Source: Gammaproteobacteria bacterium (lineage in GTDB: Bacteria > Pseudomonadota > Gammaproteobacteria > UBA1113). Taken from it: a DNA stretch of 64,000 nucleotides. The stretch spans positions 18,605 through 82,604 of the forward strand of contig JAGVJK010000001.1 in NCBI GenBank assembly GCA_020051155.1, written 5' to 3'. Each line of letters starts with the position of its first letter. Position 1 is the stretch's first letter. The translations under genes were made by a program, and so were the position numbers. Of the stretch, positions 42,191-44,575 are shown in pieces. Below the pieces are notes generated by a model, which saw nothing but the letters and a program-made list of their open reading frames with translations, had not been told where the DNA came from and searched no databases.

Positions 42191-43526
42191 TGGTTGAGTA
42201 AATCAACACGCCAACGCTGTATTGACGGAAGCCGAAGGTTTCAAAAAATGTCAGTATCAATAAGCGAGGCACATCACTAGCATGCCGATAATAATTGAAT
42301 GTAATGTAGTTAATCACTTCATTCGCAATAGTGATATAAGCCACGAAGCCCCATGCCAACAAAAGAAATAATATCGTACTATGCAAATTAAAAATGCCTA
42401 AATAGCAGGTTGCTGCAATCGTTAAATATGCAGCACACTCAATAATTGGAGCCAAGACTTCCAAATAAACATACCCTGGGTAACCCAGAAGACCTTGAAT
42501 ACCATAACGAGGATTAAAAAACATATACCAATAACGAGAAGTTGCGCGCAAAATACCTCTGCGCCATTTATTTCGTTGCTTGGCAAATTCTTTTAATGTT
42601 GCGGGAACATCTGTCCATACAGCTGCTGCTGGGTTAAAGAGCATTCTGTACGGCCGATTATGTTGGTGCATATAGGCATGTAGATGCATGATAATCTCAA
42701 TATCTTGCGCAAAATTTTTGGTATCAAAACCACCTACATCCAGCACTGCTTTACGTTCATACAAGGTTGCTGTCCCTGAGTAACCCATAGTACCACCAAA
42801 TAAATTCCAGCCAGTTCGGCTAAACAAATGAGAGCGAATATACTCTAATGTTTGCACAGCGGGGGTAAACTGCCGCGGCAACGCAGGTTCGGTGACTCGG
42901 CCATTCCCATAAACACAACCATTTAAAATATAAACTCCACCCGCTACAACAATCGTATTTTCATGGGTCATCAAGTCATAGACAAACTCTGAAATAGTGG
43001 ATGGATACATCAACGTATCACCATCCAGCGTCATAAAATAAGGAGTAAAACAAGCATTCACACCAACATTCAATGAATCACTTCGCCCACCATTCTTCTC
43101 CTTATCAAGCACCATGATGTTGGGATGTGTTTTTGATACATAAGCTGTTTTAACCGCTGTCGCTGGAATTTTCTCGTCGAGCACTACGGGAACTTCCACC
43201 AGCTCAAAATGCTCTTTAATAATGCTCATGGTATTATCTTTTGAAGCATCATTAACGATGATGAGATACAAGTTCTGATACCTGGAATTTAAAACGCTGC
43301 CAATGGCATCTACAATACATTCTTCTTCATTATAGGCTGGCATAATAACAGTGACTGGCGGCAATACCTCTGAGTTTAATAATGTATCTGAGCGAGTATA
43401 CCGGAAACGTTTAAAATAATTACTAATCGTGGGAATACAACCAATCAATAAGATCGTGTAAAAAATTGCAGATAGAATAAAGTACGCCAGTACAATAAGA
43501 ATAGCGATTTCTGTCACTTCTCTCAT
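42150..43526 (-). CDS. Processive family-2 glycosyltransferase (PgaC/IcaA/NodC/BcsA-like synthase)
   Basis: TM helices at the N- and C-termini. Carries VIMPAYNEEE (the first-aspartate region), DGDTLM and the QRNKWRRG (QxxRW) processivity motif. Overlaps the upstream gene by 4 nt. Confidence 0.85.
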   Translation of the reverse strand: MREVTEIAILIVLAYFILSAIFYTILLIGCIPTISNYFKRFRYTRSDTLLNSEVLPPVTVIMPAYNEEECIVDAIGSVLNSRYQNLYLIIVNDASKDNTMSIIKEHFELVEVPVVLDEKIPATAVKTAYVSKTHPNIMVLDKEKNGGRSDSLNVGVNACFTPYFMTLDGDTLMYPSTISEFVYDLMTHENTIVVAGGVYILNGCVYGNGRVTEPALPRQFTPAVQTLEYIRSHLFSRTGWNLFGGTMGYSGTATLYERKAVLDVGGFDTKNFAQDIEIIMHLHAYMHQHNRPYRMLFNPAAAVWTDVPATLKEFAKQRNKWRRGILRATSRYWYMFFNPRYGIQGLLGYPGYVYLEVLAPIIECAAYLTIAATCYLGIFNLHSTILFLLLAWGFVAYITIANEVINYITFNYYRHASDVPRLLILTFFETFGFRQYSVGVLIYSTINYIVNRLRGRPE

Positions 43527-44575
43527 TTTTTGTCCTCGCGTATATTACGTATTTTCATAAAATAAGATGGCTCTTGAAATTTCTCATCTCCCCTTTCGCC
43601 TTGATAACTCGCTAATAGCGCTAGGCCTTCCTCTCCCAAATTGGCTAAGACTTTTGCCGCATTCACCCGCACCCACCACGCTTCATCATTCAATGCGTTG
43701 CCCAATGGCTGTAAAATAGCTTCTTTTTCCAGATGACTCATGCTTTGCACAGCAATATTACGCACCAACCAATTTTCATCCGACAGTAGCTGAATTAGAA
43801 TCGGTGTTGCTTTTTCTTTATGGGTCTTTTCTAGAATTCGAATCGCTGATAATTTTAGTTCAAGATCTTTCGATTGCACATCTCGAGCAGCTTCTTCAAA
43901 AAATAGATCCGTTGGGCCTATTTTTTTTAAAATACGATAACAGGTTCTACATAATCTAGTATCTTCATGATTTGATAATTTTGTTTTAATGACGCTCAAC
44001 AATGCACTCGTTACAGAAAGTTGTGCAATGTATAAGATTTGAAAGTGGTCTGTTACTTTATTTATTCGTTCTACCAATGCTTCCAACACGGGTACTGTAT
44101 CAACATTTATCGCTACTTTTACCGCATTAATGCTAATCACTGGGACTCTATCATTGACTAGTTTTATCACTAGCTTTTCATACGTGGCATCGACATAATA
44201 CAGCAAGCATTGCACTAATAAAAAACGCCGTCCCCAATTGCGAGCCTGACCGTATTTTACTGCACTGGGTAAAACTTGTGTCCTCATAAGATCTTTTTTA
44301 TGTTTCTGCCATCCTGAATCTTTTTTACGCATGTCATCCCAACGAAAAAAAGAGCGAATGATGATGTGAGGTTGCTTAGCGTACGGCAAATGCCCTCCAT
44401 TGTTATGGTGGCAAAAATTAATAAAAAAGTGATCGATTTTCTTAATTTTTTTCGCATCAAAGTACTTTTTTATGTAGGAAACAAAACCAACCATGTAAAC
44501 ACAGATAACTAACAAAAAAATGATGACCGCTTCAAAGATTAAGACACCCTCAATGACAAAATCAAAATTTTGCAT
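43523..44575 (-). CDS. HEAT-repeat protein with an N-terminal TM anchor, in the GT2 operon
   Basis: N-terminal hydrophobic helix (VLIFEAVIIFLLVICVYMVGF). The C-terminal half has HEAT/PBS-lyase-type repeats (LLSDENWLVRNIAVQSM, LNDEAWWVRVNAAKVL). Confidence 0.55.
   Translation of the reverse strand: MQNFDFVIEGVLIFEAVIIFLLVICVYMVGFVSYIKKYFDAKKIKKIDHFFINFCHHNNGGHLPYAKQPHIIIRSFFRWDDMRKKDSGWQKHKKDLMRTQVLPSAVKYGQARNWGRRFLLVQCLLYYVDATYEKLVIKLVNDRVPVISINAVKVAINVDTVPVLEALVERINKVTDHFQILYIAQLSVTSALLSVIKTKLSNHEDTRLCRTCYRILKKIGPTDLFFEEAARDVQSKDLELKLSAIRILEKTHKEKATPILIQLLSDENWLVRNIAVQSMSHLEKEAILQPLGNALNDEAWWVRVNAAKVLANLGEEGLALLASYQGERGDEKFQEPSYFMKIRNIREDKK

Follow-up and report, generated by a model that had tools for sequence, protein, structure and literature searches.

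A membrane-anchored HEAT-repeat solenoid encoded beside a processive family 2 glycosyltransferase: a candidate accessory subunit of a widespread class of polysaccharide synthases

The gene considered here lies at positions 43523..44575 (minus strand) of a 64,000-nucleotide stretch of DNA, hereafter the window, from a gammaproteobacterial assembly (GCA_020051155.1, contig JAGVJK010000001.1, positions 18,605 to 82,604). It starts at an ATG and encodes a 350-amino-acid protein with HEAT repeats, predicted to cross the inner membrane once and to hold a HEAT-like alpha-solenoid in the cytoplasm. It is the fourth gene of a five-gene operon that runs from 48660 to 42150, all on the minus strand, and comprises in order a TviB-like nucleotide-sugar dehydrogenase, a UXS-like short-chain dehydrogenase/reductase (SDR), an outer-membrane porin in which tetratricopeptide repeats (TPR) precede a YaiO-type barrel, the HEAT protein and a membrane-embedded glycosyltransferase of family 2 (GT2). 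An initial annotation made from the letters alone had described a HEAT-repeat protein with one transmembrane (TM) helix at this place, and the open reading frame (ORF), its hydropathy and its Pfam HEAT matches bear that description out. The gene is under purifying selection, with a ratio of nonsynonymous to synonymous substitution rates (dN/dS) of 0.07 against its 79%-identical orthologue in locus L004 (L-numbers are the labels of the related loci compared in this analysis).

The operon is compact throughout. About 2 nt separate the dehydrogenase stop from the likely ATG of the SDR gene, the SDR and porin genes overlap by 8 bp, the porin and HEAT genes are 2 nt apart, and the HEAT and GT2 genes overlap by 4 bp. 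At this last junction (GAC AAA AAA TGA / ATG AGA GAA GTG) the TGA of the HEAT gene and the ATG of the GT2 gene share the ATGA at 43523-43526 (minus strand), just as had been annotated, and a GAGG lies about 9 nt upstream. The further claim that the arrangement implies stoichiometric co-expression goes beyond what the overlap shows, which is co-transcription and possible translational coupling, with no bearing on a 1:1 stoichiometry. Because all five genes are equally tightly packed, the ATGA alone places the two genes in the same, possibly coupled, operon and is no special mark of the HEAT/GT2 pair within the window. A scan of the operon for promoters and terminators gave counts close to the shuffled expectation.

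The HEAT protein carries an N-terminal TM helix at residues 11-29 (44489..44545, minus strand; Kyte-Doolittle 3.02), followed by the Lys-rich stretch SYIKKYFDAKKIKK. There is no other convincing TM segment, and 115 of the 116 family members over which residue conservation and topology were counted have no second strongly hydrophobic window past residue 80. Lysine and arginine are more numerous after the helix than before it in 114 of these members (means 3.9 versus 0.6), and by the positive-inside rule this bias predicts an N-out/C-in topology with the solenoid in the cytoplasm. A periplasmic, BcsB-like placement of the HEAT domain was rejected on the same rule. Within the membrane, the position of E15 is occupied by Glu or Gln in 112 of the 116 members.

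Pfam recognizes the soluble part of the protein at residues ~234-322 (HEAT_2, E 1.2e-16, above the gathering score; HEAT, 2.5e-11; HEAT_PBS, 2e-5). These models of the superfamily of HEAT and PBS-lyase-type HEAT-like repeats (PF13646, PF02985 and PF03130) describe tandem helix-turn-helix repeats of about 30 residues with the consensus D..(W)VR..A...LG, and HEAT_2 is matched by all 116 members. An AlphaFold2 (AF2) model built from an 11-sequence alignment of 20-80% identity reached a mean predicted local distance difference test score (pLDDT) of 88.6 and a predicted template modelling score (pTM) of 0.76, while a single-sequence model (pLDDT 56) was discarded. The accepted model has a long N-terminal helix at residues 2-57, made up of the TM segment and a juxtamembrane extension, and then 16 helices that form eight hairpins at residues 69-323 (43607..44371, minus strand), where pLDDT is mostly >90. 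The last three hairpins are canonical PBS-type HEAT repeats and the earlier ones are family-specific; in the model, the alpha-solenoid extends beyond the C-terminal third to the whole soluble part. The near-invariant residues that fall outside the generic HEAT consensus are P103, W114, R117, D142, Q179, C212-Y213 and D232. After a linker of low confidence (pLDDT <50 at 328-333), AF2 places a short conserved helix at residues 335-347 (43535..43573, minus strand), in which the M340 position is Leu in 98 of the 116 members and the consensus reads '...P..D..AYE.A...L'. We regard this helix as a candidate docking peptide.

Structure comparison supports a right-handed alpha-solenoid, as Foldseek against the PDB matched the AF2 model to generic solenoids only (alphaRep, PP2A-A, importin-alpha and designed armadillo proteins). 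The PDB sequence search likewise returned only artificial alphaRep and PBS-HEAT proteins over residues 232-335, with E values as low as 8e-34 when the family profile was used. Clear homology to an unrelated, well-characterized enzyme, against which the initial annotation had set its proposal, did not appear in these remote-homology and structure searches: Pfam, NCBIfam, the PDB sequence search and Foldseek gave neither an enzyme fold nor a characterized enzyme homologue. The modelled fold class is that of a generic protein-binding solenoid.

The family to which the protein belongs is larger than a first search suggested. A word-indexed protein search recovered 3, then 6, then 8 true members, since HEAT words saturate the candidates, and an exhaustive HMMER search over 1.84 billion representative proteins returned >100 full-length clusters (50% identity) of ~340-365 residues that align over profile positions ~8-330 with E values of 1e-28 to 1e-97. 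Pfam and NCBIfam hold no dedicated family for these proteins and recognize only generic HEAT repeats in the 116 members, and RefSeq labels them 'HEAT repeat domain-containing protein', with nothing further. No fusion of the HEAT protein with a GT2 (a 'Rosetta stone') occurs among the 150 best representatives.

The neighbouring synthase (42150..43526, minus strand) is a GT2 of 458 residues and processive type, with an N-terminal TM segment, a GT-A domain and a C-terminal TM bundle, and it matches Pfam Glycos_transf_2, Glyco_tranf_2_3 and Glyco_trans_2_3. Its best NCBIfam model is PgaC_IcaA (TIGR03937), at 114 bits against a cut-off of 422; the score falls below the equivalog threshold at which it would be assigned as a PgaC/IcaA poly-beta-1,6-GlcNAc synthase. 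The match to Pfam Chitin_synth_2 is weak. Twenty-six HEAT-linked GT2s retain the motifs D93, D141, D168xD170, D275xE277 and Q317-R-x-(R/K)-W321, the last of which reads Q317-R-N-K-W321 in the window enzyme, with K where most relatives carry R. These 26 enzymes thereby show the signature of processive membrane synthases; they have TM segments at both termini, and a regulatory domain is lacking in them. Pfam finds no PilZ or other regulatory domain in the protein. Because the D, DxD, D/E and QxxRW-type motifs are kept and the enzyme has no regulatory domain of its own, its regulation would need a partner.

Upstream, the first gene of the operon (47308..48660, minus strand) encodes a nucleotide-sugar 6-dehydrogenase, similar to TviB and UDP-GlcNAc dehydrogenases, with the N-terminal, central and C-terminal UDPG_MGDP_dh domains of Pfam. 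It scores 336 bits with the NCBIfam TviB model, under the equivalog cut-off, and 334 bits with NDP-sugDHase, and the name given by JGI is 'UDP-N-acetyl-D-galactosamine dehydrogenase'. Its true start is probably M27 at 48582, because the orthologues are 424 residues long. The gene is kept beside the system in loci L001, L004-L006, L010, L012, L014-L016, L019 and L031. The second gene (46340..47320, minus strand; likely start at the ATG at 47305) encodes an extended SDR nucleotide-sugar enzyme (Pfam Epimerase, 1.6e-48) whose closest PDB relatives are the human UDP-glucuronic acid decarboxylase UXS1 (137 bits) and then uronate/hexose epimerases and ArnA; with NCBIfam TviC it scores only 84 bits. 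By these similarities it would be either a UXS-like UDP-uronate decarboxylase or a 4-epimerase. A TviC-type 4-epimerase leading to a Vi-like poly-GalNAcA is a possible reading that we did not adopt, because the SDR is nearer to the UXS decarboxylases. The third gene (44578..46347, minus strand) encodes the outer-membrane export component of 589 residues, with a hydrophobic N-terminus and signal peptide, periplasmic TPRs (~65-290; many TPR families of Pfam) and a YaiO-type beta-barrel (~371-589; Pfam YaiO, 6.2e-21; NCBIfam OMP_YaiO_dom, 76 bits against a cut-off of 32).

Judged by these sequence features, the operon would be a Gram-negative synthase-dependent exopolysaccharide system, predicted to make and export a polymer. 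It has an inner-membrane processive GT2 with the D, DxD, catalytic D/E and QxxRW motifs and, 2 nt upstream of the HEAT gene, an outer-membrane barrel with periplasmic TPRs, and the five-gene locus holds no Wzx/Wzy, ABC transporter or priming (initiating) phosphoglycosyl transferase gene.

The association of the HEAT and GT2 genes is conserved far beyond the window. Relatives of the HEAT protein at 80, 44, 37, 26 and 24% identity all stand in the order YaiO(-TPR)-HEAT-GT2 with a 4-bp HEAT/GT2 overlap implied by the coordinates; a dehydrogenase and an SDR gene are found near this group, and icmQ/S/T flank one of the loci. We then scanned one genome per GTDB species for the motif WWVR[IV]NAA, a sample biased towards the motif, which occurs in ~20% of the family. 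Of the 23 motif loci, 22 have a full-length GT2 homologue (31-58% identity), and in 20 of these 22 it lies directly downstream of the HEAT gene, often with a 4-bp overlap. The taxa include Legionella norrlandica, L. saoudiensis, many metagenome-assembled genomes (MAGs) of Legionellales, and Acidobacteriota, Actinobacteria, Acidimicrobiia, Myxococcales and Polarisedimenticolia. Outside Legionellales the HEAT ORFs of the scan are 377-428 residues long and again have one N-terminal TM helix followed by basic residues. Over the whole comparison, coordinates imply the same 4-bp overlap in L001, L004-L007, L016, L018, L020, L022, L024, L026, L028, L031, L032 and L038. In L. saoudiensis (L018), paralogous GT2 genes at 4327-5712 and 9044-10429 flank the outer-membrane protein-HEAT pair; the HEAT stop and the downstream copy, whose identity to the window GT2 is 39%, have 4 bp in common.

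Approached from the GT2 side, the result is the same. A GT2 homologue was detected at E<1e-30 in 14 plasmid and megaplasmid records, and a HEAT-repeat protein is encoded directly upstream of it in all 14; one of these proteins is annotated as 'hypothetical' but matches the family hidden Markov model. The gene orders are dehydrogenase-SDR-YaiO-HEAT-GT in Legionella adelaidensis; histidine kinase (HK)-response regulator (RR)-RR-YaiO-HEAT-GT2-Hpt in Mesorhizobium ciceri; RR-TPR-HEAT-GT2 in Erythrobacter; HEAT-GT-[TPR+YaiO] in Bacteroides finegoldii; RR-HEAT-GT2-TPR-YaiO in Emticicia; TPR protein-HEAT-GT in Deinococcus radiophilus; CotH-689 aa-HEAT-GT in Planococcus; and RR-HEAT-GT2 in the haloarchaea Halosolutus, Salinirubellus and Haloarcula. 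On the Devosia and Paenibacillus plasmids, too, the HEAT gene is directly upstream of the GT2 gene. The combination of a TM segment with HEAT repeats is found again in these lineages. The pair spans at least nine phyla and two domains of life. The partner gene is thus not missing from orthologous loci, the outcome that had been named as telling against a functional link.

These counts bear on two other explanations of the pair. It could be argued that the adjacency is incidental, a generic HEAT protein being co-transcribed with a synthase to which its function is unrelated, as HEAT repeats are common and bind many things, and an ATGA means little where all the operon genes overlap or nearly abut. 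Adjacency in 20/22 genome loci and 14/14 plasmid loci, over at least nine phyla and two domains, contradicts this, and we give such an explanation almost no credence. It could also be argued that the solenoid is a metabolon scaffold that tethers the dehydrogenase and the SDR to the synthase and channels an unusual UDP-sugar; the two enzymes are co-operonic with the pair and conserved in Legionellales, HEAT solenoids are often scaffolds, and PP2A-A is among the top fold matches. However, the pair occurs without both enzymes in Acidobacteriota, Actinobacteria, Myxococcales, Deinococcus, Bacteroides, Mesorhizobium, Erythrobacter and haloarchaea, so that metabolon scaffolding cannot be the ancestral function, and we hold it to be very improbable here.

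The export partner of the pair varies with the lineage. In Legionellales and Mesorhizobium the TPR-YaiO gene immediately precedes the HEAT gene; in Emticicia and Bacteroides a gene for a YaiO or TPR+YaiO protein comes after that of the GT2. A conserved protein of 690-1000 residues is encoded with the pair in Deinococcus, Actinobacteria, Acidobacteriota, Myxococcales and Planococcus (pairwise E 1e-22 to 1e-138; L021:10273-12498, L034:382-2808 and L040:332-2401, and also L026 and L029). It has an N-terminal TM segment, TPRs in some members and a region of ~600 residues without a Pfam match. It appears to fill the place of the TPR-YaiO porin of Proteobacteria and Bacteroidota, and it may be the extracytoplasmic component where the porin is absent. 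In the Firmicutes (L040 and the NELoc-2 locus of Clostridium perfringens) a CotH-family kinase gene and the gene for this protein, here of ~690 residues, precede the HEAT-GT2 pair. The Planococcus gene arrangement is that of the C. perfringens NELoc-2 genes CP4_0465-0468, where a 'HEAT repeat' and 'chitin synthase' pair is listed, uncharacterized; the locus to which these genes belong is linked with necrotic-enteritis strains (PMC2879425).

A second recurrent neighbour concerns regulation. In at least 12 loci outside Legionellales (L021-L024, L026, L028, L032, L035, L036, L038, L039 and L041), the HEAT gene is preceded, directly or a few genes away, by a gene for a single-domain receiver (REC) protein of ~125 residues (on the opposite strand in L021). 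REC-GGDEF or GGDEF-REC proteins are encoded upstream in L021 and L029, and hybrid kinases and Hpt proteins are also found nearby. Among the HEAT-adjacent RRs (L038:2003-2374, L039:1813-2190, L035:2504-2875, L036:1412-1783, L032:2788-3180 and L021:7112-7465), those of haloarchaea and alphaproteobacteria share 40-55% identity, and the actinobacterial RR of L021 is 47% identical to that of Haloarcula. Because these identities are well above typical REC-REC similarity, they suggest that a dedicated RR subfamily travels with the HEAT-GT2 pair, also across the boundary between bacteria and archaea. No HEAT-linked single-domain RR was found in the window or in the Legionellales loci compared.

Another candidate for a regulatory input is cyclic di-GMP (c-di-GMP), which controls all the well-studied Gram-negative synthase-dependent systems. 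The HEAT domain would then be a novel c-di-GMP receptor and allosteric activator of the synthase, comparable to the PilZ domains of BcsA and Alg44, to PelD or to the PgaC-PgaD interface. GGDEF or EAL genes do lie within a few kb of the pair in four Legionella loci (GGDEF within ~7 kb in L011, L012 and L016; EAL 4 kb upstream in L. adelaidensis), and the REC-GGDEF proteins mentioned above belong to actinobacterial and myxobacterial loci. Legionella genomes, however, are rich in GGDEF/EAL proteins, and the nearby copies may be there by chance; the window operon has no GGDEF/EAL gene nearby; Pfam and NCBIfam find no PilZ, I-site, MshEN or GAF signature in the protein or its 116 relatives; and the conserved arginines R117, R272 and R303 belong to the repeat consensus. 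We consider a c-di-GMP receptor improbable. The scaffold or the second-messenger or protein-interaction module put forward in the initial annotation is a hypothetical role, and the comparative data point more to a link of the HEAT protein with a CheY-like RR.

The other competitor is a purely structural role, in which the HEAT protein is a co-subunit or assembly factor of the PgaD/IcaD kind, its TM helix completing or stabilizing the channel and its solenoid taking no part in signalling. The conserved intramembrane Glu/Gln and the adjacency to the GT2 would suit this role, as would the Legionellales operons, which carry no regulator gene, and PgaD and IcaD are established precedents as small membrane partners of PgaC-like GT2s. 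A conserved cytoplasmic solenoid of ~290 residues nevertheless exceeds the needs of a TM stabilizer, and an orthologous RR that recurs beside the HEAT gene across many phyla, archaea included, speaks for an input function. A purely structural role is, in our judgement, rather unlikely.

Taken together, these observations favour a role of the HEAT protein as an inner-membrane accessory subunit dedicated to a distinct and widespread clade of processive GT2s, a reading to which we assign a probability of about 0.6. Several points weigh against it. In L014 and L017, both Legionella MAGs, the HEAT gene ends the cluster, two genes downstream of the GT2, an arrangement which means that strict translational coupling is dispensable. 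In the distant HEAT partners of Deinococcus, Bacteroides and haloarchaea, it is mainly the generic repeats that match the Legionellales profile, so that homology with the window family, as opposed to analogy, is not proven for them. The HEAT gene evolves at 2-3 times the rate of its neighbours (dN 0.118, versus 0.045 for the GT2 gene), which fits an adaptor but also a less constrained role. The physical contact of the HEAT protein with the synthase is itself inferred. Finally, because no RR, GGDEF, EAL or PilZ gene is found in or beside the operon in the window, the regulatory part of the model rests on other lineages.

With the HEAT protein as an accessory subunit, we infer how it would act in regulation and which polymer would be made. 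The TM helix, with its conserved Glu/Gln, would span the inner membrane and probably pack on the TM bundle of the synthase, and the eight-repeat solenoid would stand in the cytoplasm beside the catalytic GT-A domain as a docking platform for other proteins, stabilizing and/or switching the enzyme. In most other lineages the input would probably be the dedicated CheY-like single-domain RR encoded upstream; in the Legionellales-type operon, which has no RR gene, there may be another input, or the pair may be constitutively assembled. Together with the TPR-YaiO porin and the two UDP-HexNAc (N-acetylhexosamine)-modifying enzymes, the pair would polymerize and export an amino-sugar polymer made from a UDP-GlcNAcA-derived sugar, either of the GalNAcA type (a HexNAc-uronic acid) or, should the SDR act as a decarboxylase, XylNAc.

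A more far-reaching and tentative proposal, which we think could well be wrong, is that RR-HEAT-GT2 forms an ancient, horizontally mobile module of bacteria and haloarchaea, in which the phosphorylated RR docks on the HEAT protein and switches the synthase on or off, a post-translational control independent of c-di-GMP, and that the Legionellales form is derived, having lost the RR and gained the UDP-HexNAc-uronate enzymes. Were this so, the module would define a new synthase-dependent class with a TPR-YaiO porin in diderms and the TM-TPR '~700-aa' protein in Deinococcus, Actinobacteria, Acidobacteriota, Myxococcales and Firmicutes. Biofilm biology rests in large part on synthase-dependent exopolysaccharide systems, among them those for cellulose, PNAG, alginate and Pel and the more recent NfrAB, and each is defined by the co-subunit of its synthase and by its mode of switching. 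The window locus points to a further such class, with a membrane-anchored cytoplasmic HEAT solenoid as its co-subunit. This class has chromosomal and megaplasmid members in rhizobia, Bacteroides, Deinococcus, Clostridium/Planococcus, Acidobacteriota, Actinobacteria and haloarchaea and is often tied to a two-component phosphorelay. If borne out, it would bring a new structural way of gating a GT2 synthase and a route of control by phosphorylation rather than by c-di-GMP, and it would offer a handle on amino-sugar polymers of Legionellales from the environment, of Bacteroides from the gut and of the C. perfringens of necrotic enteritis (NELoc-2). In the open-access and bioRxiv literature we found no description of a bacterial or archaeal GT2 synthase with a HEAT-repeat partner; the one mention was the uncharacterized NELoc-2 gene pair of C. 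perfringens, and hits concerning Xanthomonas and 'lipocone' had no bearing on the matter. A prior description in subscription-only work, which was outside the search, is possible. What appears new is a widely conserved HEAT co-subunit of a synthase-dependent system, possibly under phosphorelay control.

The surroundings of the operon deserve a brief description. It is flanked by csrA and by a convergent major facilitator superfamily (MFS) gene. The MFS gene (40967-42190, plus strand) and the GT2 gene overlap at their 3' ends by 41 bp (42150-42190), and the same convergent MFS neighbour is also present in the 80%-identical relative L004. Some 425 bp separate the exopolysaccharide operon from the csrA homologue upstream of it (49085-49318, minus strand; 77 residues with an acidic C-terminal extension); in Escherichia coli, pgaABCD is under CsrA control, and by analogy a regulatory link from csrA to the operon is conceivable. 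The wider window is chromosomal and holds arg genes, recA, mutS and lysC, and from its relatives and gene content it would be Legionellales-like. A protein of 930 residues with many ankyrin repeats (58711-61503, minus strand) is also encoded; ankyrin-repeat proteins are typical of the Dot/Icm effector-like proteins of Legionella and Coxiella, and its presence supports an origin of the window from an intracellular bacterium. A single ORF of 3846 residues (16339-27879, minus strand) encodes a hybrid non-ribosomal peptide synthetase-polyketide synthase (NRPS-PKS) with the Pfam order A-T-C-A-T-KS-AT-KR-T-TE and, with an MFS transporter gene directly downstream (15070-16320), makes up a compact natural-product locus. 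A predicted secreted protein of 143 residues (38769-39200, plus strand), without a Pfam match, has a low-complexity region extremely rich in Gly, His, Trp, Tyr and Asn (NGHGNWGHAGWGYGNNWHHYGGWGHGYYYNNYYNNGWW) and might bind metal or aggregate. A HipA-like kinase toxin is encoded at 12587-13867 (minus strand; HipA_C, E 6.5e-48).

How does the HEAT protein compare with the partners of known synthases? The initial annotation had observed that a HEAT-repeat partner corresponds to none of PgaD, BcsB, Alg44 or PelD/E, and our searches agree, as no such Pfam or NCBIfam signature was found. PgaD and IcaD are proteins of ~100-140 residues with two TM segments, and the HEAT protein, with one TM segment and 350 residues, has no Pfam or NCBIfam match to them. 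It does not match BcsB either, which is largely periplasmic with a C-terminal TM anchor, whereas here the TM helix is N-terminal and the bulk is predicted to be cytoplasmic. No PilZ match (RxxxR, D/NxSxxG), as in Alg44, was found in the protein or its 116 relatives, and no GAF, GGDEF or TPR match, as expected for PelD or PelE, was found in the HEAT protein, whose partner is a GT2 and not a GT4.

A close parallel in organization is offered by PgaC-PgaD and IcaA-IcaD, in which a PgaC-like membrane GT2 also needs a small, separately encoded inner-membrane partner of the same operon and in which, in Gram-negative bacteria, export proceeds through a TPR and beta-barrel outer-membrane protein. The small two-TM PgaD and IcaD have no solenoid, whereas the window partner combines one TM helix with ~290 residues of HEAT structure and is encoded upstream of the synthase; moreover, the window GT2 is no PgaC orthologue (114 versus 422 bits), its barrel is of the YaiO type and not PgaA, and no PgaB deacetylase is encoded. 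The porin contains a bona fide YaiO barrel like that of E. coli YaiO and adds to it a periplasmic TPR region of ~300 residues; we know of no function established for YaiO itself.

Helical-repeat proteins serve polysaccharide synthases elsewhere as well. PelE, an inner-membrane protein with alpha-helical repeats, is regarded as a scaffold of the Pel synthase complex; it differs in being TPR-like, in having two TM segments and in working with the soluble GT4 PelF and the c-di-GMP receptor PelD, whereas the window enzyme is a membrane GT2. In yeast, the membrane-tethered cytosolic alpha-solenoid Chs4/Skt5 binds and activates Chs3, a processive GT2 that polymerizes HexNAc. Chs4 is a eukaryotic protein with Sel1-like repeats and a lipid anchor and shows no detectable sequence relation to the HEAT protein, so that the resemblance is one of analogy only. 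The GT2 family of the window is sometimes annotated as 'chitin synthase' (PMC2879425).

The aps operon of Sinorhizobium meliloti could be a distant relative of the present system. Its apsS encodes a GT2 synthase. The operon begins with UXS-type nucleotide-sugar enzymes, followed by the aps genes, and directs a Congo-red-binding polysaccharide (PMC7902896, PMC12560781). Searches by tblastn with the Mesorhizobium HEAT protein and with the window GT2 and SDR gave no match on Sinorhizobium plasmids, and any relation would be distant.

BcsA-BcsB, Alg8-Alg44 and NfrB follow the same synthase-dependent logic as the window system: a GT2 of the inner membrane is combined with either a co-subunit or a fused regulatory domain, and with an outer-membrane exporter of the TPR/beta-barrel kind. 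They differ in that BcsB and Alg44 are largely periplasmic and that c-di-GMP is bound through PilZ or MshEN domains, which are absent here; in place of these domains, the recurrent neighbour of the HEAT-GT2 pair is a CheY-like RR.

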